DNA of 64,000 nt from Candidatus Poribacteria bacterium (GTDB lineage Bacteria > Poribacteria > WGA-4E > WGA-3G), in NCBI GenBank assembly GCA_965217715.1, contig OZ244563.1, positions 405,116-469,115 on the forward strand, read 5' to 3'. Made by a program: the position numbers and the translations under genes. Below are positions 12,836 to 60,021 of this stretch, in pieces (within the stretch, counting starts at the first letter, position 1; the number at the start of each line of letters is the position of its first letter). The notes beneath the pieces are model-generated. The model was not told the origin of the DNA. It did not search any database and worked only from the letters and a program-made list of their open reading frames with translations.

Positions 12836-12895
12836 TGTAGGAGCGATCTCCGAATCGCGACCTTTTGTGAATGTCGGGAATCGGAGTTCCCTCCC
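12836..12895. repeat. family-1 nested-palindrome element (arm GCGAT type, spacer, arm GGGAA type)
   Basis: TGTAGGAGCGATCTCCGAATCGCGAC-cttttgtgaat-GTCGGGAATCGGAGTTCCCTCC. Each arm folds as a 5-bp stem (GCGAT/ATCGC or GGGAA/TTCCC) around CTCCGA. The upstream 'ataagtttacac' is shared with copy 22949. Confidence 0.85.
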
Positions 12896-12965
12896 GCTGA
12901 ATGCCAAAAGCGCATTTGGCGTTGATTTGGCCAAATGCCAAAAGTGCATTTGGCGTTGATTCACA
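12896..12965. repeat. tandem 35-bp hairpin modules (AATGCCAAAAGCGCATTTGGCGTTGATTTGGC, 2 units) abutting the family-1 element
   Basis: Each unit carries an AATGC-N6-GCATT stem. The same modules occur at 59032..59122 and 63751..63850, with compensatory stem variants (CATGC..GCATG, GAATGC..GCATTC). Confidence 0.8.
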
Positions 12966-13154
12966 GTTCGAAAGTGTGAAAGTAATGCTAAAATCTACTA
13001 TAACATGTTTGTGTCGTCCCTTAAAAAAGTGCCTTAGAAAACATAAATTCTGAGGGGATCGGACACATCGCTAAACATAAATTGTTTGAAGTGGACAATT
13101 TTGTTTCTGTATCTTGACAATCCCTATTAGATATGGTATAATTGTCTAAAGGGC

Positions 13155-13226
13155 GCGGGTGTAGCTCAGCGGTAGAGCATCAGCTTCCCAAGCTGAGGGT
13201 CGCGGGTTCAATTCCCGTCACCCGCT
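13155..13226 (+). tRNA. tRNA-Gly (anticodon CCC)
   Basis: Cloverleaf with acceptor GCGGGTG/CACCCGC, D-arm GCTC-AGCGGTA-GAGC, anticodon arm TCAGC-TTCCCAA-GCTGA and T-arm GCGGG-TTCAATT-CCCGT. CCA is not encoded. Confidence 0.85.
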
Positions 13227-13254
13227 TGTATGTGAACAAATTACCGAGGAAATC

Positions 13255-14400
13255 ATGGCGAAAAATACTCGATTGACCAAAGAAGAAATCCAAGAAGATA
13301 AATTTATTGACTTGGTTCTGAACTGTTATTCTTTTCTGAAGAATAATATTTTGCCTATCAGTATCACGCTTGCAGTTATCATTGTTGGGGTAGTAGGTTA
13401 TTTAGTCTACACCCAAAATCTGGAAAAAAAATATGCTGAAGCTGCTGCGAACTTTTCTAATGCTACCGATACTTATAAAGCAGCTGAAGAAAGTTATTTA
13501 GATGTGTCTGCACCGAACGAAAGTGAAGAGGACGCTGAAGGTGAAGCAGAGGCTGAAAAAGTCACCTTTGAAAATGCTGAGGAAAAATTACAGATAATTT
13601 TTGAGAAATATCCAAATACACCCTTGGCAGACAAAGCACGGTACAATTACGCCAAAAGTCTTTACTATCAAGGCAAATATCCGGAAGCGCGCGAACAATT
13701 TGAGAAGATCGTTGAAACACATAAACCTGAAAATCAGATTTACGCATTGTACGCACAAAAGGCAGTAGGCAACTGCTTTGAACAAGAGGAAGACTACGCA
13801 AACGCGATTTCAGCTTATGAGGTAATAGCTTTTCCAAACACACCCCAACTTGCGCCTGAAATTCGTCAGTTTGTTCTAACGAGTGCAAAATATAATCAAG
13901 CACTTTGTCATGAAAAATTGAATGCATTAGAGGATGCAAAGGTATCTTATCAGGAAATTATTGAGGAATTCCAGAGAACACTAAAGGCAGGTATTGAGCA
14001 GAAAAGTATTGAACTGATTAAAGAGGCAAAAGAAGTGCTTACGGTGATTGAAGAACCTTTGGAAATCACAAAAGCAGAACATAAGGAAATGGAAGTACTT
14101 TATTTTGAATCGCTTGTCGCATATACTGACACAATTCGAGCATATAAGGTTGAAAAAGATACTGGCGGTGGGTTGTTGTCGGATGTGCGAAAACGCATAC
14201 GGAACTTTGAGGAAGTCGCAACTACATTCATTAGTGGTGTCGAATCGGCACGTAAATCTGAAAAATCTGGATATCAAAGTGCTGCACTAAATACCTATAA
14301 ACGAACTGTGGAATTCGATGCCTACGGCTTAAATTCTGAACTGTATGAACGTGCCCTCCTCAATTATCAACGTCTCACGATTGCAGGAAAAGAGGAGTAA
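13255..14400 (+). CDS. membrane-anchored TPR-like protein (YbgF/CpoB-like architecture; function unknown)
   Basis: Single N-terminal TM segment (ISITLAVIIVGVVGYLVY), an acidic linker, then TPR-like helical repeats (ARYNYAKSLYYQGKYPEAREQFEKI.., ALYAQKAVGNCFEQEEDYANAISAYE..). Confidence 0.5.
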   Translation: MAKNTRLTKEEIQEDKFIDLVLNCYSFLKNNILPISITLAVIIVGVVGYLVYTQNLEKKYAEAAANFSNATDTYKAAEESYLDVSAPNESEEDAEGEAEAEKVTFENAEEKLQIIFEKYPNTPLADKARYNYAKSLYYQGKYPEAREQFEKIVETHKPENQIYALYAQKAVGNCFEQEEDYANAISAYEVIAFPNTPQLAPEIRQFVLTSAKYNQALCHEKLNALEDAKVSYQEIIEEFQRTLKAGIEQKSIELIKEAKEVLTVIEEPLEITKAEHKEMEVLYFESLVAYTDTIRAYKVEKDTGGGLLSDVRKRIRNFEEVATTFISGVESARKSEKSGYQSAALNTYKRTVEFDAYGLNSELYERALLNYQRLTIAGKEE

Positions 14401-14443
14401 AATGAAAGATAGAAAACGTCATTTGCTTGTTTGGACAATTGAA

Positions 14444-15418
14444 ATGGGAAAACGGTTAAGTTTTGGACTAATTTTAGTGTCTTTGTGTCTTCCCCTTATC
14501 GTAGATGCAGCACCCTCGGGGCGTATTGCTTATGCTGTTTCAGGGTTTAATGACAAACTTGGAAGATTAGATTTCAATCTTCACATGACGACCTTCACCG
14601 AAAATGGTGACTTCAAGACAACCCCTTTAAATCAATCTGGAATGTATCCAGCATGGGGACCAAAAGGTGACACGCTCTATTTTATCCAACGTGCCAACAC
14701 ACAATCACATATCTTTTCAATTAATATCAATAACCCAAAAAATAAAACACTACTGACGCAAATTAGCGGTACTTACCGATTTTTAGCTGTTTCACCGAAT
14801 GGAAAGAAACTCGCTTTTAACGGATGGACAAATGAACAACAGCAACAAGAAAATCAGGTATGGGTACTTGATATTGAGACAGGTGAAATGGAGGCAGTGA
14901 CTGCAATACCGCATTTTGGAAGAACCTTCTTTTTCTGGGGAATCTCTTGGGCACCGAACAGTAAACAACTTGCGTTTTCACTTGAAAGACCCGGTGGATT
15001 AGAACAACTCTACTTGTTAGACCTTGAAACAAAAGAAATAGAAATATTAACTGAATTAAATATTGATTTCTATCCTGTGTGGTCACCTGATGGTCAGAAT
15101 ATTTTGTTCCGTAGATGGAACAGAGAATTTGACACAATGTCTACAATTGATGTTGAAACGCGGGCTGTAAAACCGCTCTTTGATGTTGATAAGCAGACCG
15201 GCATGTGGACAGATTGGTCATTTGATGGTCAATCAATTATCTATTCTCGGTGGGGAGCGTTCTTTTTACACGATCTCCTAACCAGAAAAACAGAACAATT
15301 GTTTGAAGTGGAGGGCAGCATTTTTGTAATTTCCTGGTGGAAACATGAAGTGCTTCCCGTTGTACCTAAACAAAAATTAACTACAACTTGGGGGGATGTC
15401 AAACGTACTTTGAGATAA
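14444..15418 (+). CDS. PD40/TolB-like beta-propeller repeat protein, secreted
   Basis: Signal peptide MGKRLSFGLILVSLCLPLIVDA, then PD40 blades 'PAWGPKGDTLYF', 'AVSPNGKKLAFNG', 'ISWAPNSKQLAFS', 'PVWSPDGQNILF' and 'WSFDGQSIIYS'. Start chosen at the signal-peptide Met; the ORF track extends upstream into the neighbouring gene. Confidence 0.75.
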   Translation: MGKRLSFGLILVSLCLPLIVDAAPSGRIAYAVSGFNDKLGRLDFNLHMTTFTENGDFKTTPLNQSGMYPAWGPKGDTLYFIQRANTQSHIFSININNPKNKTLLTQISGTYRFLAVSPNGKKLAFNGWTNEQQQQENQVWVLDIETGEMEAVTAIPHFGRTFFFWGISWAPNSKQLAFSLERPGGLEQLYLLDLETKEIEILTELNIDFYPVWSPDGQNILFRRWNREFDTMSTIDVETRAVKPLFDVDKQTGMWTDWSFDGQSIIYSRWGAFFLHDLLTRKTEQLFEVEGSIFVISWWKHEVLPVVPKQKLTTTWGDVKRTLR

Positions 15419-19963: not shown

Positions 19964-20521
19964 ATGGCGAATTTAGAAAATGCACACTCACTCGATTTTC
20001 AGTTTAAAGAAGTTGAACAAAATATCAATGAACGCGAACAGGAAATTTCGCGCCTCGTGAAGCAACACAATATCCCCGCAGAATGGTTTGATAGAGAATT
20101 CAACGCTGAAACCCATAATTTTGAAACAGACGCTGTTAAGGAAGCGTATCTTAAAATTGCTCGTTATCAGCACGAAATTAAACAATACATTAATACTTTC
20201 TGCATTTCTCGCGAGAAGTTACAAGATATTACGAAACAGATTGATTCCGGCATAATTAATAATGCCCAAGATGCCAAAATGGCGATTGTAAAAGCAAATC
20301 TGAGGCTGGTCGTTAGCATCGTTAAGAAATATGGGCAAGAAGCTCAAGGTCGTGAATTTTTCGATCTGATTCAAGAAGCCAACATCGGTTTAATGAAAGC
20401 TATTGATAACTATGATTATCAAGGCGGTTTTCAGTTTAACACTTACGTTACTTGGTGGGTACGTCAAAGTATTTCCCGTGCTATTGCTTCAGCAGAAGGA
20501 AACGATGATCTTGATACTTAA
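19964..20521 (+). CDS. truncated sigma-70 paralog covering regions 1.2 to 2.4 only (no region 1.1, 3 or 4)
   Basis: The 185-aa product aligns at about 65% identity to RpoD residues ~180-345 of the gene downstream (KEVE-NI--REQEI-RL--QHN-P-EWF...[22 protein letters not shown]...DLIQE-NIGLM-A-D--DYQ-GF-F-TY-TWW-RQSI-RAIA). It ends 'SAEGNDDLDT*' at the point where RpoD continues '[12 protein letters not shown]'. Its ATG overlaps the dnaG stop (TAAATG) and a GAAGGAGAA RBS precedes it. Confidence 0.7.
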   Translation: MANLENAHSLDFQFKEVEQNINEREQEISRLVKQHNIPAEWFDREFNAETHNFETDAVKEAYLKIARYQHEIKQYINTFCISREKLQDITKQIDSGIINNAQDAKMAIVKANLRLVVSIVKKYGQEAQGREFFDLIQEANIGLMKAIDNYDYQGGFQFNTYVTWWVRQSISRAIASAEGNDDLDT

Positions 20522-20642: not shown

Positions 20643-22250
20643 GTGGATTTAGGTAATACACACCTACTTGATTTTAATGAATCTGATAACACGGATCAGG
20701 CTGAATTTGATGACTTAATGGAATTCACTCCAGGGGAAATCAGTGAACGTGAAGATCTGATTAAAGTTTATCTACGCGACATGGGGAAAGTTCCGTTGAT
20801 AGATAAAGAAAAGGAGATTCAATTATCTCAGCAAATTGAGATGGGACTCCGCCAGGCACAAGCTGCAACATTTACTACTCGACTTGCGGTAGCAGAGGTG
20901 CGAAAACTTCTCTATAAAATCATCATTGCTAAAAAACGGGCATCTGATATAGTTGATATGCAAATTTCGAGTAACTCAACCCGTGATAAGGAACGTAAGC
21001 TGCGCGAAAAAGTAGAAAAGATGATGCGAGTCATTGAAACTTTAGAATTGGAATATCTTCTTGCTGCGAAGAAAGCGGCTAAGAATAATGCAGTCGTAGA
21101 ATTTGAAACAGTTGGAAGTTATACAAACTTCGTCAAACATCTTGAGCAACTGAGGATTGACCGAGAAGAGATTAGCAAAATATCAGGACAGATTAAAGAA
21201 GTTGAACGGAATATTACTGACCGTGAACAAGAAATCGCACGACTCCAAAATCAACATAATCTTCCGCAAGAGTGGTTCAATGGAAGGCTAAACTCTAAAA
21301 CTCATAATTTTAAAACGGTTGCTGCAAAAGAAGCATATATTAACATCGTCCGCTATCAACGCGAGATTCAACAATATCTAAATACAATCGGTAGCTCTCG
21401 CGACTCCCTCCAAGCTATTACCAAACAGATTTGTGTTGGCGAAACCAACGCACAAGACGCAAAAATGGCTATTGTTGAAGCAAATCTCAGGTTAGTTGTT
21501 AGTATCGCAAAGAAATACAGACACCAAGCACCTGGACTTGAATTCCTCGATCTGATTCAGGAAGGCAATATAGGTTTAATGCGAGCAGTAGACAAGTTTG
21601 ATTATCAACGCGGTTTCAAGTTTAGCACTTACGCCACCTGGTGGATACGTCAAAGTATTACCCGCGCAATCGCGGACCAAGGTCGCACTATCCGTATTCC
21701 GGTCCACATGCATGAAAGAATCAATAAACTCAGGCGAGCAGAGCGTTCACTTATCCAAGATTTAGGTCGACGACCTACACCAGAAGAGATCGCTGCAGAT
21801 ATGGGAATTCCAGCTGAAAAAGTCAGAGAAGTTTTAAGGATTGTTCCGGAAACTGTCTCATTGGAAACACCTATCGGAGACGATGATGATGACAGCCAAT
21901 TAGGGGATTTCATTGAAGATGCAAGTGTGCTGTCACCAGCCACAGAAGCTGAGCTTAGCATTCTCAAAGAACGTATTCAGGAAGCACTCGCCGATCTGTC
22001 TGAACGGGAACGAGAGGTGATTGTCCTTCGCTTCGGAATTGAAGATGATACCATTGACCCATTGTTGTCTGAAACAACACGCAAACGGATTGCGGAACTT
22101 TGCATTACTACCGGTTACCCAAAAACACTTGAAGAGGTCGGTGTCGTTTTTGGTGTCACTCGAGAACGGATCCGCCAAATTGAAGCGAAAGCCCTCCGTA
22201 AACTTCGCCATCCAGTCCGAAGCCATCGCCTACGTGGCTTCATAGAATAA
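20643..22250 (+). CDS. rpoD: RNA polymerase sigma factor RpoD (sigma-70)
   Basis: GTG start after an AAAGGAGA RBS. Region 1.2 '[15 protein letters not shown]', regions 2.1-2.4 '...[44 protein letters not shown]', region 3, and region 4.2 '[30 protein letters not shown]'. Confidence 0.95.
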
Positions 22251-22341: not shown

Positions 22342-22405
22342 TGTAGGAGCGACCTCCTGGTCGCGATATGACCAAAATGCTGAGAAAAACTGAAAACTGA
22401 ATTAC
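22342..22405. repeat. variant family-1 arm plus conserved tail (paralog of 1350..1414)
   Basis: TGTAGGAGCGACCTCCTGGTCGCGATATGACCAAAATGCTGAGAAAAACTGAAAACTGAATTAC. The stem GCGACC/GGTCGC is a compensatory variant of GCGAGCT/AGCTCGC. Confidence 0.7.
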
Positions 22406-22427
22406 GCTTCAAGAATTGCATAAATTC

Positions 22428-22626: not shown

Positions 22627-22948
22627 TCGCTTAGGGAAACGCCCAACCTACCGCGTGAAGGTATCTGTGATTACGTTCTGACAAAATTAGGTAAACCATT
22701 AAATCTGACTTTTGGAGGAATAAAATAAACAGTGTATCTTACTTCAACTATCCTATCTCCATTATCCTTTTGCAAACATGATTTTGCCATGAATTGATGC
22801 TTTTACAAAAAAAGCTAAACTTTTTCTGGTGAAACGTATATATTAAGTATAACAGGTGATCACCATGTTATTTTATAGTTTGAAACGATTAACTTTTCTC
22901 GTTATCTTGCTTATATAGTGAAATATACAAATAAGTTTACACTCCTTC

Positions 22949-23014
22949 TGTAGGAGCGATCTCCGAATCGCGACTGCACGCCTTGATAGTCGGGAATCGG
23001 AGTTCCCTCCTACA
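22949..23014. repeat. family-1 nested-palindrome element (GCGAT arm first)
   Basis: TGTAGGAGCGATCTCCGAATCGCGAC-tgcacgccttgata-GTCGGGAATCGGAGTTCCCTCCTACA. Confidence 0.85.
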
Positions 23015-23065
23015 CCTACAAAGTGTCCAAGTAATTCTAAAATCCACTATAAAAGGAAGTAACCG

Positions 23066-34042: not shown

Positions 34043-35194
34043 ATGAAAACGTATTTAAGAAATCTTGAGTGCAGCAGCTGCGGTGAAATCTATCCCCACG
34101 AAATACCTCAGAATGTATGTCAATCGTGTGGGAAACCGTTGTTTGCGCGCTACGCGCTTGAACAATTAGTTAATACTTGGAAACCTGAACACCTTCTGTC
34201 AAGACCTCCATCGTTATGGCGATATAGAGAACTTCTGCCCATCTGCGCTGATGAACATATTGTCTCACTTGGAGAGACAATGACTCCACTTATTCATGCC
34301 AAAAGACTTGGCAGTCAACTTGGTTTGCCAGAACTCTGGATAAAGGATGAGTCTCGCTTACCGACTGGAAGTTTCAAGGCGCGCGGTTTAGCGATGGCTG
34401 TTTCCAAAGCGAAAGAACTCGGCATCAGCAAATTGGCTATACCGTCTGCGGGAAATGCAGCAACAGCGTTGTCGGTATATGCTGCGTGTGCTGGTATCCC
34501 TGCTCACATTTTTATGCCGAAAGATACCCCTATCTTTAATCAAGAAACTTGTCGACTTGCAGGGTCAAACGTCACACTGATTGATGGCTTGATTACAGAT
34601 GCAGGCAAAATAGTTGCTGATAGAAAAAAAGATGCAGGATGGTTTGATGTCTCAACCCTCAAAGAGCCTTATCGTGTTGAAGGAAAAAAGACGATGGGCT
34701 TTGAACTTGCGGAGCAGTTCGGTTGGAAACTGCCAGATGTAGTAATCTATCCTACAGGCGGTGGTACAGGTATTGTAGGGATGTGGAAAGCGTTTGCTGA
34801 ATTGGAGGCAATCGGTTGGATTGGTGAGAAAAGACCTCGGTTTATCTCGGTTCAGGCGGCGGGTTGCGCTCCAATTGTCAAGGCGTGGGAGGAAAGGAAA
34901 ACTGCTGCTGAACCGTGGCAAGATGCACACACAGTTGCCAGCGGATTGCGGGTGCCACAAGCAATTGGTGATTTTCTGATTTTAGAAGCCATTTACAAAA
35001 GTGAAGGAGCTGCAGTTGCTGTTACTGATGACGCAATTGGTGAGGCGATGCACTTGTTACCAACGACTGAAGGCATTTTGACCTGTCCTGAAGGCGCTGC
35101 AACAGTCGCTGCATTAAAACCGCTCAAAGCGAACGGAATTATTAAGTCAACTGAACAGATTGTGCTTTTTAACACTGGCGGCTATCAGGCATAG
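34043..35194 (+). CDS. thrC: threonine synthase (short archaeal/thermophile-type, PLP fold II)
   Basis: N-terminal Zn-ribbon-like 'CSSCGEIYPHEIPQNVCQSCGKP' and the PLP lysine motif 'TGSFKARGLAMAVS', plus glycine-rich 'PTGGGTGIVGMW'. It starts 9 nt after the transcarbamylase stop. Confidence 0.75.
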   Translation: MKTYLRNLECSSCGEIYPHEIPQNVCQSCGKPLFARYALEQLVNTWKPEHLLSRPPSLWRYRELLPICADEHIVSLGETMTPLIHAKRLGSQLGLPELWIKDESRLPTGSFKARGLAMAVSKAKELGISKLAIPSAGNAATALSVYAACAGIPAHIFMPKDTPIFNQETCRLAGSNVTLIDGLITDAGKIVADRKKDAGWFDVSTLKEPYRVEGKKTMGFELAEQFGWKLPDVVIYPTGGGTGIVGMWKAFAELEAIGWIGEKRPRFISVQAAGCAPIVKAWEERKTAAEPWQDAHTVASGLRVPQAIGDFLILEAIYKSEGAAVAVTDDAIGEAMHLLPTTEGILTCPEGAATVAALKPLKANGIIKSTEQIVLFNTGGYQA

Positions 35195-35245
35195 GAGAGA
35201 TTGAAACTATGGTAGAGATTAGAATTAACTCTACATTCTTGAACT

Positions 35246-35310
35246 GTAGGAGGGAACTCCGATTCCCGACTGCTCCTAAGTTCGGTCGCGATTCGGAGAT
35301 CGCTCCTACA
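35246..35310. repeat. family-1 nested-palindrome element (GGGAA arm first) just downstream of thrC
   Basis: TGTAGGAGGGAACTCCGATTCCCGAC-tgctcctaagttcg-GTCGCGATTCGGAGATCGCTCCTACA. Confidence 0.85.
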
Positions 35311-35398
35311 GAGGAAATGTAGAATTATTTCTATAATCCACTATAAGTAGTGTCTCCATGGGTGCGTCAAACAAACGCACCCATGGAAATCGGTAATT

Positions 35399-36166
35399 TT
35401 ATCGATCGCGTTCAATGTAATCGTATCTTGGATTCTCTTTCTGATTAGGATTTTCACCTTCCATCAGTTCTGTTGGTTGAGGCGCGTTTCTTCGGTTGAT
35501 ACGAGGTCCGAATTTATAACTGTGAACTTTTACTATCGGATATGGCCCGTCAAATCCGACGATCTTACCCTGCACTTCGACCTCATTATTGTTTCTTGTA
35601 GCATCAATTCGCAGATCATCGAATTCTGGAGATGCTTTGAAAACAAACTTCTGACCACCGTTGCCTGCGTCGAGTGCCTGACGGACCTCAGAAGTTTGAG
35701 GTCTCCACCGTGCCCATCCAGGAATATCGCGGATACTACTTCGTGTGAAGCCGGGGTGTGAAAACATTCTACCTGTAATTGTGGCTTCAGTTTTAAGGAG
35801 GCGGACCTGTCCGAGTCCATGTCGTCCGCGATAACGCGTATCCTTCAACTGTCGCATAATGTTGTAGACATCAAAGGTATGTGTTCGGTTGTACTTTGTA
35901 TCACCTTGTCGCGGTTTTACTTCCACAACAGTTGTGAAATGTCTTGTTCTGCCGTTCTTATCTACGGGTGTATGGAATGTAATTTCTTTTGCGTCTGCCC
36001 ATGGCGACAACAACCTGCGGATTTTGATGGCATCCGCATTACTAACAACATCGGAAATTTCTATCTTCAGGGTTTGTAATTCTGCTACACTTTGCGTGCT
36101 AATGCCACTAAGCAGAAACAGAAACATTGTTACACAGATGATACTGCTGAAATATGCGCGTCTCAT
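35399..36166 (-). CDS. secreted hypothetical protein (no recognisable domain)
   Basis: Signal peptide MRRAYFSSIICVTMFLFLLSGIST, basic, 255 aa. It lies immediately outside the czc operon boundary repeats. Confidence 0.5.
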   Translation of the reverse strand: MRRAYFSSIICVTMFLFLLSGISTQSVAELQTLKIEISDVVSNADAIKIRRLLSPWADAKEITFHTPVDKNGRTRHFTTVVEVKPRQGDTKYNRTHTFDVYNIMRQLKDTRYRGRHGLGQVRLLKTEATITGRMFSHPGFTRSSIRDIPGWARWRPQTSEVRQALDAGNGGQKFVFKASPEFDDLRIDATRNNNEVEVQGKIVGFDGPYPIVKVHSYKFGPRINRRNAPQPTELMEGENPNQKENPRYDYIERDR

Positions 36167-36193
36167 AATGCGTTCTCCCTTGAATTTTTAATT

Positions 36194-36982: not shown

Positions 36983-37049
36983 GTATTACATTTTGTATAG
37001 ATATGTCACTGAAGTATAACGTCTTCAACAACCGTTTGTTGACAGGTAT

Positions 37050-40000
37050 CTATTCTTCAGCATTCCGTTTTTCAACAAGATAATACAACGCTGGTAAAAC
37101 AAGCAGCGTCAGAAAGGTCGCGGTAATCATGCCGCCGCTGATGACAATGGCAAGCGGCTTCTGGAGTTCTGCACCTGAACCGTGTGCAAGCGCAAGGGGC
37201 AGCATCCCTAACCCTGTTGTCAAGGCTGTCATTAGGACTGGACTAATTCGTTCGGATGCTCCCTTCATCACAGCGTCAAATAGCGACATGCCTTCCTTGC
37301 GTAGTGCATTGATATGTGAAACCAAGATGATGCCGTTACGCACTGCGATGCCGAACAAAAGAATAAAACCTACCATAGACGGAATACTCAGCACTCCGCC
37401 AGTGAGGAAAACACTGACAACACCACCGATTAACGCCAACGGTAGGTTCAGTATCACTAATATTGAAAGCCGCATTGAACCCATCGCAAGATACAGTAAA
37501 ATAAAGATACCGATAAAAACAAAACCTGTTTGAATTAGGATACGTCTTTGCGCTCTCTGTTGACTTTCAAACTGTCCACCATAGGTGAGAAAATATTCAT
37601 CAGGTATATCAACATGCGCCTCAATTTCTTTTTGAACTTCAGCAATAAAGTTACCAAGGTCCCTATTTTGCACATTACATTGGATCACGATACGACGAGA
37701 GACGTTCTCGCGATTGATGGTATTCGGTCCGAAGCCAAAACCGACATCAGCAACCTGTTTCAATGGGATGAATGCGCCTGAAGACGTTCGTAGTTTCAGA
37801 TTGCCAAATGATTCAACGGTTTTGACAAGTGTTGGGTCAATCCGAACAACAAGGTCATACTGCCGTTGTCCTTGTATAATTTGACTGACTGTCTCGCCTT
37901 TGAAAGCCGCTTCAGCAAAGTGTGTTATGTCTTGAACGCTTAAGCCGTAACGTGCTGCTTCAAGACGTTTAACTTTGATTTGCAATTGTTCAACCTGCAC
38001 TTGTTGTTCAACCTGTAAATCTGCAACACCATCAATCCCGGACATGACTGCTTCGATTTCCTCGGCTTTCTGTCTTAGCGTATCAAGGTCAGGTCCGAAA
38101 AGTTTCAGTGCCACTTGCGCGCTAACACCCGACAACAAATGGTCAAGACGGTGTTGAATCGGTTGACCAACGGATACTTGGACACCCGGAAAGTTTTCTG
38201 TTGAGAGCAGCTCCCGCACTTCAGTAAGAAGTTCTTCACGTGTTTTTTCACGTTCATCGGGTGGAATGAAGTTAACCACAATTTCATGCGTATTCACATC
38301 GTGTGCATGTTCGTCCGCTTCGGCGCGTCCTGTTCGACTACTGACACTTGTCACCTCCGAAATATCCCTCAACCTTGTTTCCATCTCACGACCAATACGT
38401 GTAGATTCATTCAACGAAGTTCCAGGTGGTGAAAACACGCTGATAGTAAACGTAGCTTCATCCATCACAGGCAAAAACTCTCTTCCTAAACGAGGAATCG
38501 CCATTAAAGTCAGTATTACCAGTACCGATGCAACTGCCACTACAAGCCAACGTAAACGTATAACCAATGAGAGAATAGGACGATACGCGCGTTTGATCCA
38601 CATCACAACAGGCTGGAGCGTTAAGGCAGTCTCAACATCTGAATCAGGTGCCAATGCGACAACAAACAACCGCCATCGTACTAAAAGGTTGCGAAAAACG
38701 TTAGAAGCCCGTTTGCCTGAAGAATCAGCTCCTGGAATGGGTTCATGCAAAGGTATATCTCTGACGCGTCCTAAAAGTAGATCACTTAAAACTGGAACCA
38801 CTGTTAAAGCAACGAGCAACGATGCTGCCATTGAAATCACAACAGCCCAACCGAGCGGACGAAACATTCTGCCCTCAATGCCGCTCAGACTGAACAGTGG
38901 TAAAAACACGAGGATAATAATCAACGTTGCAAAAACGATGGATACACGCATCTCATCGCTTGCGCGTGTCACAACTTGTGTCGGTGTTTCGTCTGTCTCA
39001 TTCCCTAAATCACGTAGATGAAAATACTCCTGCAAGCGCCGAAAGATATTTTCTACGTAGACAATTGCATCGTCAACCACCATACCAACAGCAATTGCTA
39101 AGCCTGCAAGCGTCATAATGTTGAGAGTGCTTCCCTGTAAACGCAGCACAATGATAGCGATAATCAGCGATAACGGAATAGCAGTCAGTGTAATCAGTGC
39201 GGTGCGGATATTGAAGAGGAAGATAATTAGGACAACAACAACAAGAATTGCACCATCCCGCAGCGCTTCTTTGACGGTATCCACAGCGCGGCGAATTAAA
39301 TCAGCTTGTGCGTACTCAACTTCTATCTTTACATTCTCTGGTAGCGACTTCTCCAACGATTTCAGTTCTGATTTAACTTCGTCGCTGAGGGTAAGCGTAT
39401 TGATACCGGGTTGCTTCACGACCTTACCTAAAACGGTTTCTTCACCGTTGCGGCTTCCAGCGCCACGACGGATTTCTGGAAGCGATCCAATTTTGACTGT
39501 TGCGATATCTTTGACGAGGATAGGTGTGTTGTGTTTCCGTACATCAATTACAACATTTTCAATGTCGGCAACCGAGGAAATCCGTCCTAATCCTCTGATC
39601 ATCAGCTCACGCGCGTCTTTGATGAGAAATCCGCCTGCTGCATTATCGTTGCTCTTTTCAAGTGCGTGTGCAACATCTTCAAGTGAAATGCCGTAGCTTA
39701 CCAACCGTTCAGGATTAACGAAAACTTGAAATTGTTTGATATAACCTCCAATGTTAATTACATTGGCGATCCCACCCTGTGATTGGAGTCGGTACCGTAT
39801 CACCCAGTCTGCTATGTCGCGCATTTCCATCGGATCCAGTTTGTCTTTTTCATCTGATTCATCAATGAGCGCGTATTCCATAATCTCTCCCAAGAGGGAA
39901 GAGGTGGGTAAAATAATTGGAGCATCAACGCCTTCTGGTAAATTCGGTGCAACGAGTTGCAGTCGTTCAGAAACCATCTGCCGCGCCAGAAAAATATCCA

Positions 40001-42293: not shown

Positions 42294-42430
42294 TATGGTA
42301 GATTATTGATTTAATTAGACGTATTTATCTGTAGGAGGGAACTCCGATTCCCGACTATCAGTGAAGTTCGTCGCGATTCGGAGATCGCTCCTACAGGTGA
42401 GGTGTATAATAATTTCCATATTTCACCATA
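42294..42430. mobile_element. MITE-like element, copy 3, inserted in the 180-bp spacer between czcC-like and czcB-like genes
   Basis: TATGGTAGATTATTGATTTAATTAGACGTATTTAT-[core 42330..42395]-GTGAGGTGTATAATAATTTCCATATTTCACCATA. Confidence 0.75.
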
Positions 42431-44296: not shown

Positions 44297-44764
44297 TTAA
44301 ATGCGGAGGGCAACAGTACGAAGTGAAACGAGCGTATGGTTAATTAAAGGTGGAACGAGCAAAAGATGGGATGGAGTAAAAACATTTGATAAATGAGTCT
44401 CAAGTGTAATTAGAGAGGCTGCGTGAATGGATTTGTCTGTTGACAAATTTTCTTCAACAGCAACAATGTATAATTCACTGTTTAGTGAAGCAAAAATGGG
44501 TAGGTCAACACATTCGCCGCAGTGGTCATCATGCGCAGCAGGTATCTCTGGGTAAGCCAAATCAGGGGAAGGTACGTCTGCACAACAACCGTTGACAGAA
44601 AATTCAAATTCAACGTGCCCATCTTCACCAATGCACAGAACATACTGAGACAGCTGCATCGGAACTATGGCAAAATAGATAAATAGCCAAATTATAGGTG
44701 TAACAGTTCTGTTTTTTTGGGAGAAAAGAAAAACCATGTGTTGTATGCCTAATTTGCCGAACAT
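44297..44764 (-). CDS. hypothetical Cys-rich protein with N-terminal hydrophobic segment
   Basis: ORF-track 44297..44875 trimmed to the first Met downstream of the family-1 repeat. The upstream 37 codons are a read-through of the palindromic element, giving the same 'SDLRIATS..DSRESEFPPT' pseudo-peptide as ORF 48745..48951. It contains CC-x-D...HC-x-EC motifs. Confidence 0.4.
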   Translation of the reverse strand: MFGKLGIQHMVFLFSQKNRTVTPIIWLFIYFAIVPMQLSQYVLCIGEDGHVEFEFSVNGCCADVPSPDLAYPEIPAAHDDHCGECVDLPIFASLNSELYIVAVEENLSTDKSIHAASLITLETHLSNVFTPSHLLLVPPLINHTLVSLRTVALRI

Positions 44765-44785
44765 TTTGAGTTGTAGGTTTTGAGT

Positions 44786-44852
44786 TGTAGGAGGGAACTC
44801 CGATTCCCGACTATCAGTGAGGCTCGTCGCGATTCGGAGATCGCTCTTACAG
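44786..44852. repeat. family-1 nested-palindrome element plus conserved flank GAAAATGTTCTTCTTTAATTTCAAAG
   Basis: TGTAGGAGGGAACTCCGATTCCCGAC-tatcagtgaggctc-GTCGCGATTCGGAGATCGCTCTTACA. The same flank occurs at 59189 and, inverted, at 48745..48768. Confidence 0.85.
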
Positions 44853-45270
44853 AAAATGTTCTTCTTTAATTTCAAAGTTTACCATATTATGAAGTATACA
44901 CAATTTTCTAACACAATGTCAAGAAGAAAATTTAAAAGTAATCGTTACGTGTGATTCTTCCAAAACAATGCAATTGTTTTGAATAATTAGGTTAAATGTT
45001 CAAATTATAGACAGCAATGTCCATATTATAACTACATTTTCCATTATTGTGGCATAAATCGCTATGATTCCAAGCTCAACCGTTTATTACAATTGGCATC
45101 GTATTTGCTCATATTTCATTATGAGGAAAATCAGTAACGAAATCACTACCTTTGCTTGCACACAAATTCCTTGAAAATTGCATTAAAAAATGCTAAAATC
45201 TAAATGATACGTTCTATCTATTATGTGTAAGTTTTAGTCAAACCTATATGAAGGTAAAGAGGATATACAA

Positions 45271-46339: not shown

Positions 46340-48748
46340 ATGAAAAGATTTTTGGCTTTTGCAATCGGAATGTTTTTTGTGGCTGCTATTCTCGGAAATG
46401 CAGACGCACAACTCCCAGATTTTCAGATTGATTCTGAAAGTATTATCTTCTCTAATCCGAATCCTGTTGAAGGCGAGGAGATTACGATTTGGGTTGAGAT
46501 AAAAAACGTTGGAACTGAGACTCCCACGAGGAACGAAGACTTGGTCGTTGATCTTTTTGAAGGTGATCCAACGACAAAGCCACTTCAGATTTTATGCAAT
46601 GATGTCATTTTGGATTTGAAACCCGGAAAAACTGACCGTGTGGAGATACAGTGGCAGCCCCCTGCCGGTAGAACTGAGATTTATGCTATCGTCAACCCAA
46701 CAGGTGATAAACATATTGTAGAATCTAACAATGTGAATAACGAAGCATCTGCTGTGATAGTCGCTACCCAGATAACTTTTCCTGAAGTAACGCCAGAACA
46801 AATTCAAGCGTCAATAGATCAGGGTATTGCGTGGATAGAAGCACAACAAGGAAAAAGTAGTCGCACTTGTTTACAATGTGGAGTAGAAAACCAAATGATT
46901 TTAACCTGTGTTATCTGCGGCGCGAGTCTGAAAGGTTTAGCAGAAAATTTTATACCAGGTTCCGTCTGGAATTTTGGTGAAGACCCACTACAGGAAACAT
47001 CATTGGCATTACAGGCGTTGCTTGCCGCAGGACGCACCCCATCTGACCTTTCTGTGCAGAAAGGGCTTGCGGACCTTCTTGAACAGGATTGGAATACGCT
47101 TGATGTTTACCAATATGCTGTACTCATTCCGGTCTTGGTTGTAATACGGAACCCGGAAAATCGGGAACGCGCCCAATTCGCTGTGAATCAGCTCGTAAAA
47201 AAGCAACTTCCTATCCCCGGTAGTGAATTCGCTGATGTGAGGGATGATGGTGGTTGGGGTTATGGTTACTCAGCGGATGGTGCACACATGAACATGGTTA
47301 TCTACGCGCTTTATGCTGCAAAGCAGTGGGGTCTTGAAATTCCACAAGATACATGGACACGTGCAGAGAGGTGGATTCGTGGAAATCAGACTGACACGGG
47401 CGGATGGCTCTATAATTTGGTTGAAGAAGGGTCACTGTGGGGAATTGGCGTTTACGGCAGCATGACCGCTACTGGTTTGTGGGCACTTCGTGCATGTGGT
47501 GTTTCCATTGATGATCCTCAGGTACGAAAAGGTATTCGCTGGCTAACAAAGCACTGGTCACTTACACGAAATCCAGGATCGACTTCTTGGCTTTATTATT
47601 ATCTTCTTTCCCTGCAACGTTTTAGTGATATTCCGCCAAAGGAAGAGACATTGGCTGGTCATGACTGGTACAATGAAATTGCAAGCATGATGGTCTCAGA
47701 ACAAAAAGCGGACGGTAGTTGGGATAGTCCTGGGGCGGCGACAGATTTTATGTCTACTTGTTTTGCAGTCATGTTTTTGAGTCGCGCACTTGTTCGTCCG
47801 ACAGCACCAAATATTGGTGTGGTACCACAAAGCTTACGTTTTTCACCGCCATCTCCACGCGTTGGCGAAGCAGTGAAACTGAGTGCGACACTTAGAAATA
47901 CTGGCACTCCTTTTGATAAAACGCTGGAAGCCAAGTTTTTTGCTAATAACACTGAAGTCCAAACAGCGGAGGTATTCTGGACATCCACCCTCAATGAGTC
48001 TGTTGTTTCAGTTGACTGGGTACCAAAACAAGAAGGTGAAACAGAAATTTCTATTCATGTGGACTTTGATGATTTTGATAAAAGTGACAATTCAGATTCA
48101 GTACTTCTCAATGTTTATCCAAAATCTACGTCCGCAACAGACACACAGTTGGCAAAGATCAAGAAAATATCGGAAAATGTCTTTCAGATGGGTGTTGTTG
48201 TAGTTGATATAGAAAAAAAGGAAATTATTGTTCCAGGCGAAGTTAACATTGCAAGTGATGATGCAATAATCGAATTCTTTGCATGTGGGACACTCGGGCC
48301 ATCCCATGAGAGCATCTTGATGCTTGAGGCGGAACCAATTCATCTTTTTACTGCCCTCGGTTTACTGGACCTTGAATACGGCATGAATCTTGAAGTCCAA
48401 GGTGATCCACGCGATCCTGAGGGTTCTCACGTACAAATATGGGTTGAATGGAAACAGGGTAAAAAAGTTATCTCACATCCAGCACGCGAGTTGGTGTGGA
48501 ATACAATGTCTGGGCAACCGATGCAAAAAACACATTGGGTTTTTACCGGCGGACGACTCAGGAAAAACCAATTAACCTCACAACTCACGCATAATATCAT
48601 TGCAGTATACCGTGATCCTGATTCACTAATCAACAACCCATTATCCGGTGCCACTGATGATCGCACTTATCTTGTCAATACCGATGTAGTCCCACCTAAA
48701 GGCACAAAAGTTAAGGTTATTATTCGTCCCATATATGGTGAACTTTGA
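46340..48748 (+). CDS. secreted multidomain protein: CARDB, prenyltransferase/terpenoid-cyclase-like alpha-alpha toroid repeats, CARDB, C-terminal unknown domain
   Basis: Signal peptide. CARDB-like 'ESIIFSNPNPVEGEEITIWVEIKNVGT' and 'SPPSPRVGEAVKLSATLRNTGTP'. Toroid repeats 'DDGGWGYGYSADGAHMNMVIYALYA', 'DTGGWLY' and 'QKADGSWDSPG'. An internal 'CLQCGVENQMILTCVICG' CxxC...CxxC knuckle. Confidence 0.6.
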   Translation: MKRFLAFAIGMFFVAAILGNADAQLPDFQIDSESIIFSNPNPVEGEEITIWVEIKNVGTETPTRNEDLVVDLFEGDPTTKPLQILCNDVILDLKPGKTDRVEIQWQPPAGRTEIYAIVNPTGDKHIVESNNVNNEASAVIVATQITFPEVTPEQIQASIDQGIAWIEAQQGKSSRTCLQCGVENQMILTCVICGASLKGLAENFIPGSVWNFGEDPLQETSLALQALLAAGRTPSDLSVQKGLADLLEQDWNTLDVYQYAVLIPVLVVIRNPENRERAQFAVNQLVKKQLPIPGSEFADVRDDGGWGYGYSADGAHMNMVIYALYAAKQWGLEIPQDTWTRAERWIRGNQTDTGGWLYNLVEEGSLWGIGVYGSMTATGLWALRACGVSIDDPQVRKGIRWLTKHWSLTRNPGSTSWLYYYLLSLQRFSDIPPKEETLAGHDWYNEIASMMVSEQKADGSWDSPGAATDFMSTCFAVMFLSRALVRPTAPNIGVVPQSLRFSPPSPRVGEAVKLSATLRNTGTPFDKTLEAKFFANNTEVQTAEVFWTSTLNESVVSVDWVPKQEGETEISIHVDFDDFDKSDNSDSVLLNVYPKSTSATDTQLAKIKKISENVFQMGVVVVDIEKKEIIVPGEVNIASDDAIIEFFACGTLGPSHESILMLEAEPIHLFTALGLLDLEYGMNLEVQGDPRDPEGSHVQIWVEWKQGKKVISHPARELVWNTMSGQPMQKTHWVFTGGRLRKNQLTSQLTHNIIAVYRDPDSLINNPLSGATDDRTYLVNTDVVPPKGTKVKVIIRPIYGEL

Positions 48749-48768
48749 AATTAAAGAGACACTTTTTC

Positions 48769-48834
48769 TGTAGGAGCGATCTCCGAATCGCGACGAAACG
48801 CATTGATAGTCGGGAATCGGAGTTCCCTCCTACA
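48769..48834. repeat. family-1 nested-palindrome element beginning at the stop codon of the upstream gene
   Basis: TGTAGGAGCGATCTCCGAATCGCGAC-gaaacgcattgata-GTCGGGAATCGGAGTTCCCTCCTACA. The inverted flank 'tgaaattaaagagacacttttt' overlaps the TGA at 48746..48748. Confidence 0.85.
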
Positions 48835-48937
48835 GTTCAGGACTGTAGCGTTAATTGTAATCTTTACCATAAATCTTCAGCCACAATTTATGTGGTAGGT
48901 CAACCACACCTGAATTTCAACTCATGGAAAGAAAACA

Positions 48938-58478: not shown

Positions 58479-58713
58479 GGTGGATACTGACAGTAACTCA
58501 TCCACTCCTGCATTGATTTTTGTGTTATCAAGCAGTTCCAATGGTTTGATGTTGAGGGGATTAATTGTTAATACAAAAGTATTAAGAAAAAGTCACAATA
58601 TTAAACGGATGTTTTTTCTATAGTGTTTACAATTTTAACAGATTATGGGTGTTGTTGTCAAATTTGGCTGATAAGTTATAACTGTGTAGTGCTTTGTCAA
58701 CATATTATTGTCC

Positions 58714-58789
58714 GTCGCGATTCGGAGATCGCTCCTACTTCTGGAACGTTTTTGGTAGGAGGGAACTCCGATTCCCGACTACTTTCAAG
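58714..58789. repeat. family-1 arms in inverted (inside-out) order: arm GCGAT type, 14-nt spacer, arm GGGAA type
   Basis: GTCGCGATTCGGAGATCGCTCCTAC-ttctggaacgtttt-TGGTAGGAGGGAACTCCGATTCCCGAC. The upstream flank 'caacatattattgtcc' is repeated at 58994. Confidence 0.75.
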
Positions 58790-58867
58790 CCCCATCAATT
58801 ATTACTTGACGAGGCAGTAGGTGTTTAAGTTAGAGGTAGGGTTAAAATTTATTTGGAAGGATTTCAT

Positions 58868-58897
58868 TAAAAAGAAAGGCGCGCCGTGAAGCGCGCC
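58868..58897 (-). terminator. intrinsic terminator (minus strand) with GGCGCGC/GCGCGCC stem
   Basis: On the minus strand GGCGCGC-ttcacg-GCGCGCC is followed by TTTCTTTTT. Confidence 0.55.
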
Positions 58898-59009
58898 AAA
58901 ATACTTCAGTCGAGTTAATGTTGTTATTTTCCGCCAGATGTTCAGAGGGCCCATAGAAACAATCAATCTTAAAAACGAGGATTAGTGCTTCGTCAACATA
59001 TTATTGTCC

Positions 59010-59188
59010 GTCGCGATTCGGAGATCGCTCCCGCTGAATGCGCGTATGGCATTCAGCCAAATCAACGCAGCATGCGCTTTTGGCATGCTGCCAAATCAAC
59101 GCCAAATGCGCGCATGGCATTTGTCGGGAGGGAACTTCGATTCCCGACTATCAGTCAGGTTCGTCGCGATTCGGAGATCGCTCTTACA
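59010..59188. repeat. composite: family-1 arm, 2.5 tandem 35-bp hairpin modules (inverted orientation), arm variant, spacer, arm
   Basis: GTCGCGATTCGGAGATCGCTCC / cgctgaatgcgcgtatggcattcagccaaatcaacgc agcatgcgcttttggcatgctgccaaatcaacgc caaatgcgcgcatggcatttg / TCGGGAGGGAACTTCGATTCCCGAC-tatcagtcaggttc-GTCGCGATTCGGAGATCGCTCTTACA, then the GAAAATGTGCCTCTTTAATTTCAAAG flank. Confidence 0.8.
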
Positions 59189-59294
59189 GAAAATGTGCCT
59201 CTTTAATTTCAAAGCTCACCAATGCTGAATTGTAGTGCGTAGCAGCTTATGTGATAGCGGAAATACTGTTCCACTTTTCACTTTGTATGTGCTG

Positions 59295-59570
59295 CTATGT
59301 ACTACTGACATTAGGTATAGTTTCAGAATCATCACTACTTTTTTCAGATGCGTCCGGTTGTTCTGTGTCCGTAAGGTCTATTTGGGGCGTTTCTACTTGT
59401 TCTGTTTCTAAAGGCTTTTCCATGTGCTGTATTTCCACGCCGGGGCCAGTATCCACGGATTCGAGGTAAGCCATTTGGTTTTGGTACCACAAAAAGCATC
59501 CAAGTGTAAAAATTAGTATGAAACAAGTTCCACCGAGAATCCAATTTTCTATGGAAAATTCTTTTAACAT
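59295..59570 (-). CDS. small single-pass membrane protein with acidic C-terminal tail (paralog A)
   Basis: 91 aa, MLKEFSIENWILGGTCFILIFTLGCFLWYQNQMAYLES.., a good GGAGAAAAAG RBS. About 60% identical to 62764..63093 over the N-terminal 60 aa. Confidence 0.55.
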   Translation of the reverse strand: MLKEFSIENWILGGTCFILIFTLGCFLWYQNQMAYLESVDTGPGVEIQHMEKPLETEQVETPQIDLTDTEQPDASEKSSDDSETIPNVSST

Positions 59571-59956
59571 CTTTTTCTCCTATTCTATTCATATCTTCAG
59601 GTGGTATCCACTGGGTTATAATATCTTTGTTTAGTAATCTCGGTTAATCATTAGACAAGTGAGGAAACATTGTGTTCATGAAAACTGAATTACCTGATTA
59701 TTGGAATTTCCAGCCGATTCCTCTCCCATTTGAACCTTCTGTTATTAAAGACGCATATGCAAGCAAAAAGATTGCACTTTTTCATAAAAAAATGCATTTT
59801 TTCGGTAAAAAGTGATTTTTTATGCGGTTTTTTCAAGAAATATGTGGAAAGTAGGTTTCCGAAAAATAAAAAGACACGCATTAAAGCGCGCCTAAATGAT
59901 CATGAGATTTTATTTGCCTTTTATAGTGGATTTTACAATTAACTGGACATCTGATA

Positions 59957-60021
59957 TGTAGGAGGGAACTCCGATTCCCGACTATTAGTGGTTTCGTCGC
60001 GATTCGGAGATCGCTCCTACA
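59957..60021. repeat. family-1 nested-palindrome element
   Basis: TGTAGGAGGGAACTCCGATTCCCGAC-tattagtggtttc-GTCGCGATTCGGAGATCGCTCCTACA. Confidence 0.85.

Follow-up and report, generated by a model that had tools for sequence, protein, structure and literature searches.

The bacterial interspersed mosaic elements (BIMEs) of Escherichia coli are mosaics of Y and Z palindromic units with conserved linkers, amplified into mosaics and tandem clusters, and the repetitive extragenic palindromic (REP) sequences and BIMEs of this species have IHF, gyrase and Pol I as protein partners. Bacterial miniature inverted-repeat transposable elements (MITEs), such as Correia, Nezha and the cyanobacterial small dispersed repeats, are about 100-150 nt long, non-coding, intergenic and high-copy, with inverted ends. 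Here, we investigated a repeat with these general properties in a 64,000-nt stretch of a Candidatus Poribacteria genome (assembly GCA_965217715.1, contig OZ244563.1, positions 405,116 to 469,115; hereafter the window), where a first-pass annotation had pointed out a high-copy repeat built of two palindromic arms. The repeat is a new family of GTAG-tagged REPs, a well-known class of passengers or parasites of bacterial genomes, paired into doublets that resemble REPINs, and its architecture is one that has already been described.

The closest described elements are the GTAG-1 and GTAG-2 REPs, in which a GTAG at one end is followed by an unpaired dinucleotide and by a stem that admits alternative complementary residues, and the other end is a conserved 3-nt tail (PMC3733652). 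GTAG REPs form head-outward (HH), tail-to-tail (TT) and tandem head-to-tail (HT) dimers; in some families the dimers are solely heterodimers of stem or loop variants, and Di Nocera et al. (2013) suggested that heterodimers may protect against hairpin-processing nucleases (PMC3733652). The GTAG-15 dimers of Anabaena variabilis are nested in a long palindrome, TATAGGAnTnnnATTTGATTnnTGAAA--TTTCAnnAATCAAATnnnAnTCCTATA, that runs from TATAG to CTATA and was never found empty (PMC3733652). REPs of Pseudomonas for which cognate REP-associated tyrosine transposases (RAYTs) are known include GTAGGAGCGAGCyyGCTCGCGA and GTGGGAGCGAGCTTGCTCGCGAT (Nunvar et al. 2013, PMC3686654 Table 1). Hairpin-forming REP doublets are known as REPINs; they have been proposed as the unit of replication, one that exploits a single-copy RAYT (Bertels & Rainey 2011, PMC3116915). 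The mobilization of both REPs and REPINs is attributed to RAYTs, single-copy HUH/Y1 transposases that are typically bracketed by their own REPs (PMC3116915, PMC3733652).

Arm structure and relation to described GTAG REPs

The arms follow the pattern TGTAGGAG-[GGGAA|GCGAT]-CTCCGA-[TTCCC|ATCGC]-GAC, and the window contains 26 of them, versus 0 expected. A search with the degenerate 26-mer TGTAGGAGSGAWCTCCGAWTCSCGAC, allowing up to three mismatches, recovered 23 arms in the window and none in 100 dinucleotide-preserving shuffles of it. A looser pattern picked up the divergent arms at 1350 and 22342, bringing the number to 25, and the last one, a degraded arm at 59123-59148, was found by direct reading of the sequence. 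The high-copy repeat with two arm variants reported in the first-pass annotation is therefore real. The copies it placed between 12836 and 60021 were confirmed, but the family reaches further, to 1350 and 63729. The arms are arranged as ten HH doublets, one TT doublet, three rearranged mosaics (rearranged sites at 12873, 59010 and 63729) and two divergent single arms, which amounts to roughly one arm every 2.5 kb. None of the copies falls inside a large open reading frame (ORF), in agreement with the placement outside genes that had been proposed; two spurious ORFs, 36261-36482 and 44297-44875, pass through repeat copies. The window itself is an ordinary chromosomal region, with groES/groEL, mutS2, dnaG, rpoD, an acrB-type efflux operon, Omp85 genes and three tRNAs.

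Each 26-nt arm consists of a GTAG head, an unpaired GA, a 5-bp stem, a CTCCGA loop and a GAC tail. Two variants prevail: the A arm, TGTAGGAG-GGAA-CTCCGA-TTCC-CGAC, with the stem GGGAA/TTCCC, and the B arm, TGTAGGAG-CGAT-CTCCGA-ATCG-CGAC, with the stem GCGAT/ATCGC. The order GTAG-GA-stem...stem-GAC is unchanging across the arm alignment, and pairing of positions 8-12 with 19-23 around the 6-nt loop was the minimum-energy fold in all five variants tested. As originally noticed, paired arms differ at exactly four stem-preserving positions: in every doublet of the window, A and B differ at positions 9, 12, 19 and 22 only. The change from A to B turns G9-C22 into C9-G22 and A12-T19 into T12-A19, which amounts to two compensatory base pairs. 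The spacer between the arms of an HH doublet measures 11-14 nt in the window and 9-15 nt in relatives.

This anatomy closely matches that of known REPs. The GTAG (GTRG) tag, the unpaired GA and a short G+C-rich stem with alternative residues are shared with GTAG-1/-2 and with the REPs of the Pseudomonas fluorescens complex. The tail is a conserved trinucleotide in both cases, GAA or GAT in GTAG-1/-2 versus GAC in Poribacteria. High copy number, extragenic position, clustering, and single, HH, TT and HT arrangements are likewise common to GTAG REPs. For example, the Pseudomonas PF18 repeat, GTAGGAGCGAGC-yy-GCTCGCGA, differs from the window copy at 1350, GTAGGAGCGAGC-TCCA-GCTCGCGAC, in the loop only. 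Compared with GTAG-1/-2, the Poribacteria arm has a longer, unchanging loop (CTCCGA versus 2-3 nt) and a stem of just 5 bp. The heterodimeric make-up is shared with GTAG-24 of P. aeruginosa, in which the REP variants alternate in orientation (PMC3733652). With the GTAG-15 elements of A. variabilis, the repeat has in common a REP dimer centered in an AT-rich palindrome of about 27 nt per arm, a TATAG start, a CTATA end and the lack of an empty palindrome; the REP class and the outer sequence differ, and in Poribacteria one outer sequence family holds several REP classes and arrays of 34-nt units. Two inverted REPs, a short spacer and a predicted single long hairpin in single-stranded DNA or RNA are also the features of REPINs. 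Unlike in REPINs, the two REPs are obligately different stem variants, the doublet sits inside extra conserved arms, and no RAYT adjacency was found for the A/B class at the 13 RAYT loci read.

Other repeats are more distant. The sequences of the E. coli BIMEs are unrelated, and the Poribacteria variants differ from one another by compensatory stem pairs, not by loop length. With regard to MITEs, neither a target-site duplication nor a parent insertion sequence with matching ends turned up in the loci compared, and the most conserved part of the Poribacteria repeat is the internal pair of GTAG hairpins and not the termini. The Nostoc punctiforme REP GTTGGGTT...AACCCAAC (PMC3116915) is unrelated as well. 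Overall, the comparison with REP/BIME behavior made in the first-pass annotation was correct, as the layout is that of GTAG REPs and the doublets are REPIN-like. Its further statement, that the architecture was not among the described families, did not hold: the GTAG-1/-2 layout, the HH heterodimers and the nesting between TATAG and CTATA were reported by Di Nocera et al. (PMC3733652) and, together with the definition of REPINs, make the architecture a described one. Poribacteria were not among the eight phyla of that survey. Searching the literature for the literal arm sequences returned no paper, and we found none that describes Poribacteria repeats.

To follow the family beyond the window, one genome per GTDB species was scanned with GGAGSGAWCTCCGAWTCSCGAC, which gave at least 110 eight-kb blocks from at least 50 assemblies. 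Among the matches listed, 49 assemblies were labeled Candidatus or uncultured Poribacteria and one "uncultured bacterium". Exact 22-mers are thus common to at least 49 species-representative Poribacteria genomes, and the arms occur in blocks with a GC content of 0.38-0.55 (0.42 in the window). The same composites recur in the listed blocks, namely the doublet with its outer arms, the TT form with its own flanks, tandem arrays and 34-nt units. Genomes in which the neighboring genes share only 81% identity carry near-identical arms; window positions 37066-38481, for instance, are 81% identical to a block from a Poribacteria metagenome-assembled genome (MAG; L012, CAXXUA010000005.1). The GroES protein of the window is found unchanged in two ENA contigs, whose DNA is about 91% identical to the window over the aligned stretch. 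These matches make the low-GC group of Poribacteria the most likely placement of the window. A cyanobacterial small dispersed repeat, a Nezha MITE or a HIP1-related repeat, suggested by the GC content of 42% and by GCGATC-like strings, was considered and rejected, as the listed genome matches were Poribacteria MAGs only.

Compensatory stem changes and the 137-nt unit

The first-pass annotation had argued that selection acts on the structure of the arms. To examine the stems, we captured arms with GGAG-N4-CTCC-N2-N4-CGA, which leaves the four variable stem positions unconstrained, across the window and all fetched loci. Among the 224 arms obtained, 199 (89%) were fully Watson-Crick at all four free positions. 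They comprised nine distinct fully paired stems, including CGAT/ATCG, GGAA/TTCC, GGAT/ATCC, CGAC/GTCG, CGAG/CTCG, CGAA/TTCG and GAAA/TTTC; the hybrid GGAT/ATCC was concentrated in higher-GC blocks. GGAG and CTCC are held fixed by the pattern, so variation in that alternative stem could not show in this sample. GTA immediately preceded GGAG in 202 of the 224 arms, and the exceptions were mainly GCGG heads next to 34-nt arrays. Across 26 distinct variants, the stem 8-12/19-23 was paired in 85% of cells versus 73.5% after shuffling; neither this level nor the covariation score was matched by any of 500 shuffles, a comparison in which copies of a repeat family are not independent observations. Control stems slid along the arm paired at only 21-45%. 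Pairs 9-22, 10-21 and 12-19 changed on both sides, and pair 12-19 showed U-A, A-U, G-C and C-G, that is, all four Watson-Crick types. The last two are found in the divergent copies at 1350 (GCGAG/CTCGC) and 22342 (GCGAC/GTCGC), where a compensatory stem change had indeed been pointed out. These data support the view that selection acts on the local stem and not on its sequence.

At a larger scale, the RNAalifold prediction for the whole unit is a single long hairpin; its REP region contains four symmetric mismatches, and its outer arms covary modestly. For the copy at 36194-36330, the predicted energy was -28.1 kcal/mol as DNA (z = -6.7) and -57 kcal/mol as RNA (z = -8.3), so that the alternative fold proposed earlier, a long hairpin with four mismatches, is possible.

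The repeated unit is not the 66-nt core but an element of about 137 nt (135-138), in which conserved AT-rich outer arms of about 35 nt flank the core on each side. We refer to these outer arms as the shell. The consensus reads TTATAGTGGATTTTACAATTAAC..ACA.. next to the A arm and ..TGT..CTTATTTnnATAATTTCACTATAA next to the B arm. Together the two sides form an inverted pair (TTATAGTGGATTTTACAATTAAC... / ...TTATTTnnATAATTTCACTATAA), and every unit has TA at its beginning and end. The sides are imperfect inverted repeats (about 65-75% complementarity), yet distinguishable. In all 40 complete doublets examined, the A arm lay next to the same outer arm; the orientation of the core is therefore fixed, and the unit is asymmetric and coherent. 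This clarifies the earlier statement that both arm orders occur: what stood is that one asymmetric unit is found in either orientation, and the remainder is accounted for by a separate TT form (58714-58779) with its own flanks. Shell arms vary far more than REP arms do, and each pairs only slightly better with its own partner (mean score 12.3) than with other partners (10.6; permutation p ~0.002). No empty shell was detected, as no shell pair was closer than 103 nt in about 1 Mb of Poribacteria DNA. One shell family in Poribacteria carries several REP classes, larger mosaics and arrays of 34-nt hairpins.

The pairing of arms follows clear rules across the window and 110 Poribacteria blocks. 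All 50 HH dimers, whose modal spacer is 14 nt, combined an A arm with a B arm, as did 20 of 21 TT dimers, whereas tandem HT pairs were homodimeric in 26 of 30. Single arms made up 80 of the 255 arms in the window and sampled blocks. Arms inside doublets are nearly all exact; it is the rearranged copies that carry changes.

All three rearranged sites of the window contain 34-nt tandem units, which are small hairpins followed by the linker CGTTGATTTGGC. In the window they occupy 12899-12962, 59036-59122 and 63755-63856, and they are also present in blocks L024, L026, L049, L073, L088 and L096. Their stems covary as well (CCAAATGC/GCATTTGG, CTGAATGC/GCATTCAG and AGCATGC/GCATGCT). Without exception, the units separate the outer shell from a REP arm and interrupt the GTAG head: CTG-TA-GGAG becomes CTGTGAATCAACGCC...GGCG-GGAG, so that the TA of the head is replaced and the head reads GCGG. 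Either a secondary element with the GTAG site as its target, or a by-product of processing at that site, could account for them.

Proposed mobilization and competing explanations

Taken together, we consider it probable that these are GTAG-tagged REPs whose A/B heterodimer doublets are carried in a unit of about 137 nt and mobilized by a RAYT-type enzyme. The 137-nt unit would not be autonomous; a RAYT-type HUH tyrosine transposase would copy or maintain it through single-stranded DNA, recognizing the GTAG head together with the shape of every small hairpin. Recognition of this kind would account for stems that vary solely through compensatory pairs and for heads, loops and tails that hardly vary between species. 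The difference between A and B would place four mismatches in the long palindrome, limiting cruciform or hairpin processing, and would mark the two ends as different. Both the action of a RAYT on the A/B class and the movement of the 137-nt unit, as opposed to the 66-nt core, are what we infer from these patterns.

To look for the enzyme, we probed the window and all loci with the L061 RAYT described below and with E. coli RayT, which served as a probe only. With the exception of L061, no Y1 transposase was found by phmmer or tblastn in the window or the 110 sampled blocks, a sample with little power for a single-copy gene. L061 encodes a 191-aa protein with HLH and YNPVKHG motifs, and its homologues carry PF01797 (Y1_Tnp). 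The gene belongs to a conserved Poribacteria locus composed of an HD-domain protein, the RAYT (sometimes tandem-duplicated), a 166-aa ORF, an O-methyltransferase and ferrochelatase. We read 13 such loci (L061, L113-117, L119, L122-123 and L204-207), all from the clade with GC 0.52-0.54, and all 13 are bracketed head-outward by a sibling GTAG-REP class, TTGTAGGGTGSGCACTGCSCACCA (GGTGSGCACTGCSCACC). Where the A/B class is present at these loci, it lies 1.3-3 kb from the RAYT. A RAYT, for which the first-pass annotation had proposed to look, is therefore present in Poribacteria of this clade, where it is flanked by the sibling class and not by the A/B class. Similarly, the possibility raised there of a known named repeat with a known mobilizing transposase proved true for the superfamily, which is a named one, and not for the transposase, as none was found for the A/B class. 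Within this locus, we also observed a RAYT triplicated in tandem, with the copies separated by REPs (L114:1557-3582), and a duplication of the 3' third of the gene (L061:6286-6555).

Wider searches gave a similar picture. Of eight RAYT homologues traced to contigs, seven were in the GC 0.52-0.54 clade with the sibling class, and the remaining one, P0026, was in a cyanobacterium. A metagenome scan with RAYT P0003 reached a best identity of 63% and yielded no Poribacteria-type RAYT and no arm in 80 loci. An AT-rich homologue of the syntenic HD protein led to a lineage from marine-water metagenomes with other synteny, no RAYT and no arms. Contigs encoding two of the window proteins were sought and none was found. 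ORFs bracketed by arms or whole elements in the sampled loci were housekeeping genes or an unknown secreted protein, with no transposase among them. The possibilities for the A/B class are that the syntenic RAYT serves several GTAG classes, that a low-GC RAYT is flanked by the A/B class, or that a second enzyme acts on it.

Comparing related loci provided evidence on turnover. At the orthologous site downstream of the acrB-like gene, the window element (36846-36982) and that of L012 differ in orientation and in shell subfamily, which fits turnover or re-insertion better than simple vertical inheritance. A flank-to-flank comparison of all loci yielded only two polymorphisms. The first is an indel of a 226-nt mosaic block between L052 (1978-2229) and L098 (3853-3878), whose flanks are 97% identical; its edges fall exactly at two direct REP copies, ...GGGATTCGGAGATCCCTCCTACA (...CTCCTACA heads), and it could have arisen by cleavage and joining adjacent to the heads or, equally, by recombination between REPs. 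The second is the spacer between the O-methyltransferase and ferrochelatase genes. This spacer is empty in L205 (3540-3700) and L206 and filled with REP clusters in L061 (3480-3745), L117 (6100-6310) and L204 (6810-7500), where the clusters are flanked by a diverged ~20-nt duplicate of the 3' end of the methyltransferase gene (TGGTCTGCCTTATCCTGTAA).

Several observations weigh against mobilization by a RAYT-type enzyme. None of the 13 RAYT loci, all of GC 0.52-0.54, has a RAYT flanked by the A/B class, and the window, at GC 0.42, has no Y1 gene. The flank-to-flank comparison of all loci uncovered no filled-versus-empty site for the 137-nt unit, and recombination between direct REP copies explains the L052/L098 indel equally well. 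In addition, the hairpins of single arms are weak, at -3 to -4 kcal/mol, and no better than those of shuffled sequences.

An alternative is that the elements exist mainly for the use of the host, with their spread being secondary. They could serve as RNA hairpins in 3' UTRs or intercistronic regions (mRNA stabilizers, RNase III sites or attenuators) or as DNA sites where gyrase or nucleoid proteins bind, roles of the sort proposed for the REPs and BIMEs of E. coli. High stability is predicted for the RNA hairpin (-57 kcal/mol, z = -8.3), G-U pairs are frequent in the shell helix, and copies are located 25-110 nt after stop codons and inside an efflux operon. However, copies also occur upstream of genes and beside tRNAs, and the G-U pairs belong to the A-to-B strand, whereas transcripts in the window would carry the B-to-A strand. 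In the window, all eight doublets between co-directional genes (12836, 22949, 36230, 36882, 42330, 48769, 59123 and 59957) run from the B arm to the A arm along the direction in which the flanking genes are read. Elsewhere among Poribacteria genomes the two orientations relative to transcription stand at 5 versus 9; the pattern in the window may thus be local or due to chance, and we do not take it as a family property. The elements have no T-tract, and promoter and terminator scans gave no consistent signal at them. Rfam, at the gathering score, returned only the three tRNAs in the window, and nothing at E <= 1 over 35100-37100. Furthermore, covariation favors the small local stems, while the long hairpin keeps its four mismatches, contrary to what would be expected if a single long RNA helix were under selection. 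We regard a mainly host-serving origin as unlikely; a host RNA or DNA function as an added role is possible.

It is similarly doubtful that the 137-nt unit is a modular composite of a type not described so far, its asymmetric AT-rich shell being a carrier of interchangeable GTAG-REP cores (the A/B doublet, at least four other classes and the 34-nt arrays), in which the obligate A/B pair would encode the left and right ends for an HUH enzyme other than the canonical syntenic RAYT in low-GC sponge Poribacteria. If true, the recognition of REPIN ends and the swapping of REP classes could be dissected in this system.

The unit could also be a MITE moved by a DDE transposase with a TA target, such as IS630/Tc1-mariner, with the outer arms as terminal inverted repeats and the doublet as cargo or a later insertion. 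Conserved inverted arms of about 35 nt with TA at both ends of every unit would suit this explanation, as would the ability of the shell to hold other REP classes and larger mosaics, as a carrier would, and the IS630-family pair (HTH and DDE_3) at 8845-9914 in the window. On the other hand, TA...TA is palindromic and hence unreadable as a target duplication. The shell arms show far greater variability than the REP arms, and their pairing with their own partners exceeds pairing with others only slightly (12.3 versus 10.6). The fixed core orientation in 40 of 40 doublets fits a single co-evolving unit, and about 1 Mb of Poribacteria DNA contained no autonomous element with shell-like ends. The IS630-like copy at 8845-9914 was itself examined as a parent and rejected, as it has no shell-like ends. 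We judge an origin as a MITE to be quite improbable.

Least plausible, and very unlikely in our assessment, is that the family was left behind by a burst now extinct, its copies being homogenized by gene conversion or recombination with no active transposase. In its favor, the search of the 13 RAYT loci, the window and the sampled blocks found no cognate RAYT, rearranged mosaics, degraded arms and single arms (80 of 255) are common, and one indel is edged by direct REP copies. Against it, exact 22-mers persist in at least 49 species representatives with GC 0.38-0.55, all 50 HH dimers are heterodimeric, copies at one orthologous site differ in orientation and subfamily, and decay without a recognizing enzyme should erode heads and stems equally.

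The family extends GTAG-tagged REP and REPIN elements to Candidatus Poribacteria, uncultivated sponge symbionts of a phylum outside the published surveys. It leaves the established picture of REPs unchanged; what stands out in this new member is an unusually clean obligate-heterodimer pattern and a modular shell. Because the heterodimers are 50 out of 50, the arms differ by compensatory changes only and the 22-mers are kept in at least 49 species-level genomes, the family offers a clean natural data set on how RAYT-type enzymes recognize REP hairpins and why REP dimers are so often heterodimers. On the practical side, repeats this dense will break up short-read assemblies of Poribacteria MAGs and mislead ORF calling in them.

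Copies and neighboring features in the window

Complete elements of the standard form lie on both strands. On the plus strand, the element at 35208-35345 (A 35245-35270, B 35285-35310) is located between two convergent genes, and that at 36194-36330 (137 nt; A 36230-36255, B 36270-36295) is the copy used for folding. Its shell subfamily recurs, with an unrelated spacer, in the 137-nt element at 36846-36982, 68 nt downstream of the acrB-like gene. A further 137-nt element, 42294-42430, separates the OEP and HlyD genes of the efflux operon, and 59921-60057 (A 59957-59982, 13-nt spacer, B 59996-60021) lies 46 nt downstream of the TPR/trypsin-like gene at 60103-62322. On the minus strand, the ~137-nt element at 22914-23051, between tRNA-Val and a sigma-factor gene, consists of shell, B (22949-22974), a 14-nt spacer, A (22989-23014) and shell. 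The element at 48734-48871 (B 48769-48794, A 48809-48834), also on the minus strand, bears on the earlier statement that one copy starts exactly at a stop codon: contact with a stop codon was confirmed, in the form of a shell that overlaps that of ORF 46340-48748.

The remaining copies depart from this form. The doublet at 44786-44886 on the plus strand (A 44786-44811; B 44826-44851, with the head GTAA) has a right shell only. In place of its left shell there is an exact 14-nt tandem duplication, TTTTGAGTTGTAGG, at 44764-44791, which takes in the GTAG head. The minus-strand element at 12801-13002 is enlarged to 202 nt from shell to shell; it has B at 12836-12861 (+), an 11-nt spacer and A at 12873-12898 (-) with the head GCGG, and the stretch from the A arm to the outer shell includes two 34-nt hairpin units (12899-12962). 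The TT heterodimer occupies 58687-58819 with its GTAG heads inward, B at 58714-58739 (-) and A at 58754-58779 (+) being separated by a 14-nt spacer and enclosed by their own inverted flanks, TAGTGCTTTGTCAACATATTATTG / CAATTATTACTTGACGAGGCAGTA. Close to it, the mosaic at 58975-59222 is composed of a TT-type left flank, B at 59010-59035 (-, head GCGG), 34-nt units at 59036-59122, the degraded A at 59123-59148 (+), B at 59163-59188 (-) and a right HH shell. The mosaic at 63729-63892 (-) is without a B arm and contains A at 63729-63754 (-, head GCGG), three 34-nt units (63755-63856) and the left shell (63857-63892).

Both divergent single arms are on the plus strand. The first, TGTAGGAGCGAGCTCCAGCTCGCGAC at 1350-1375 (stem GCGAG/CTCGC), is followed by a conserved tail, CAAAATGtTGAGAAAAAC..GAAtACTGAAcTAC, up to about 1425. 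The second, TGTAGGAGCGACCTCCTGGTCGCGAT at 22342-22367 (stem GCGAC/GTCGC), has a tail of the same type and lies about 100 nt upstream of tRNA-Met. This conserved A-rich tail of about 45 nt (..AAAATGnnGAnAAAAnC..GAAAACTrAAtA..), at 1376-1425 and 22368-22410 in the window, also follows single arms in L006, L014, L016, L052, L074, L098 and L104.

The window holds at least four further GTAG-tagged REP classes, at 1592, 11747 and 63589; at 63625; at 36770 (-); at 43906; and at 44015 (-), including TTGTAGTCGCGCAATTCATTGCGCC (three copies) and GGTAGGCGAGGTTTCCTAACCTCGC. Two of these further classes are found at 63540-63690 within a similar AT-rich shell. At 1436-1577, TTGTGGGAGGGGTTCTCTA is repeated in tandem 6.7 times. 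This 19-nt unit corresponds to the 5' half of a GTGG-tagged REP, whose full palindrome, TTGTGGGAGGGGTTTGTAACCCC, is reached in the final copy.

Finally, gene order around these repeats was compared with related contigs. Synteny with L120 ends just past groEL, at 7612 (window 7612-10100). Beyond this point, the window has a truncated type I restriction-modification specificity gene (8093-8875) and a frameshifted IS630-family transposase (HTH 9417-9914, DDE_3 8845-9492), and in L120 a repeat mosaic of about 460 nt, bounded by shells, occupies the breakpoint. The otherwise collinear L120 and L121 lack the DUF3368 and TPR/UPF0175 genes that the window has at 2587-4001, a 1.7-kb indel. Between dnaG and the full-length rpoD-like gene (20643-22250), a 185-aa ORF (19964-20521) matches sigma-70 region 2 only; it could be an N-terminal portion of rpoD that has been split off or extended, or else a small gene in its own right.

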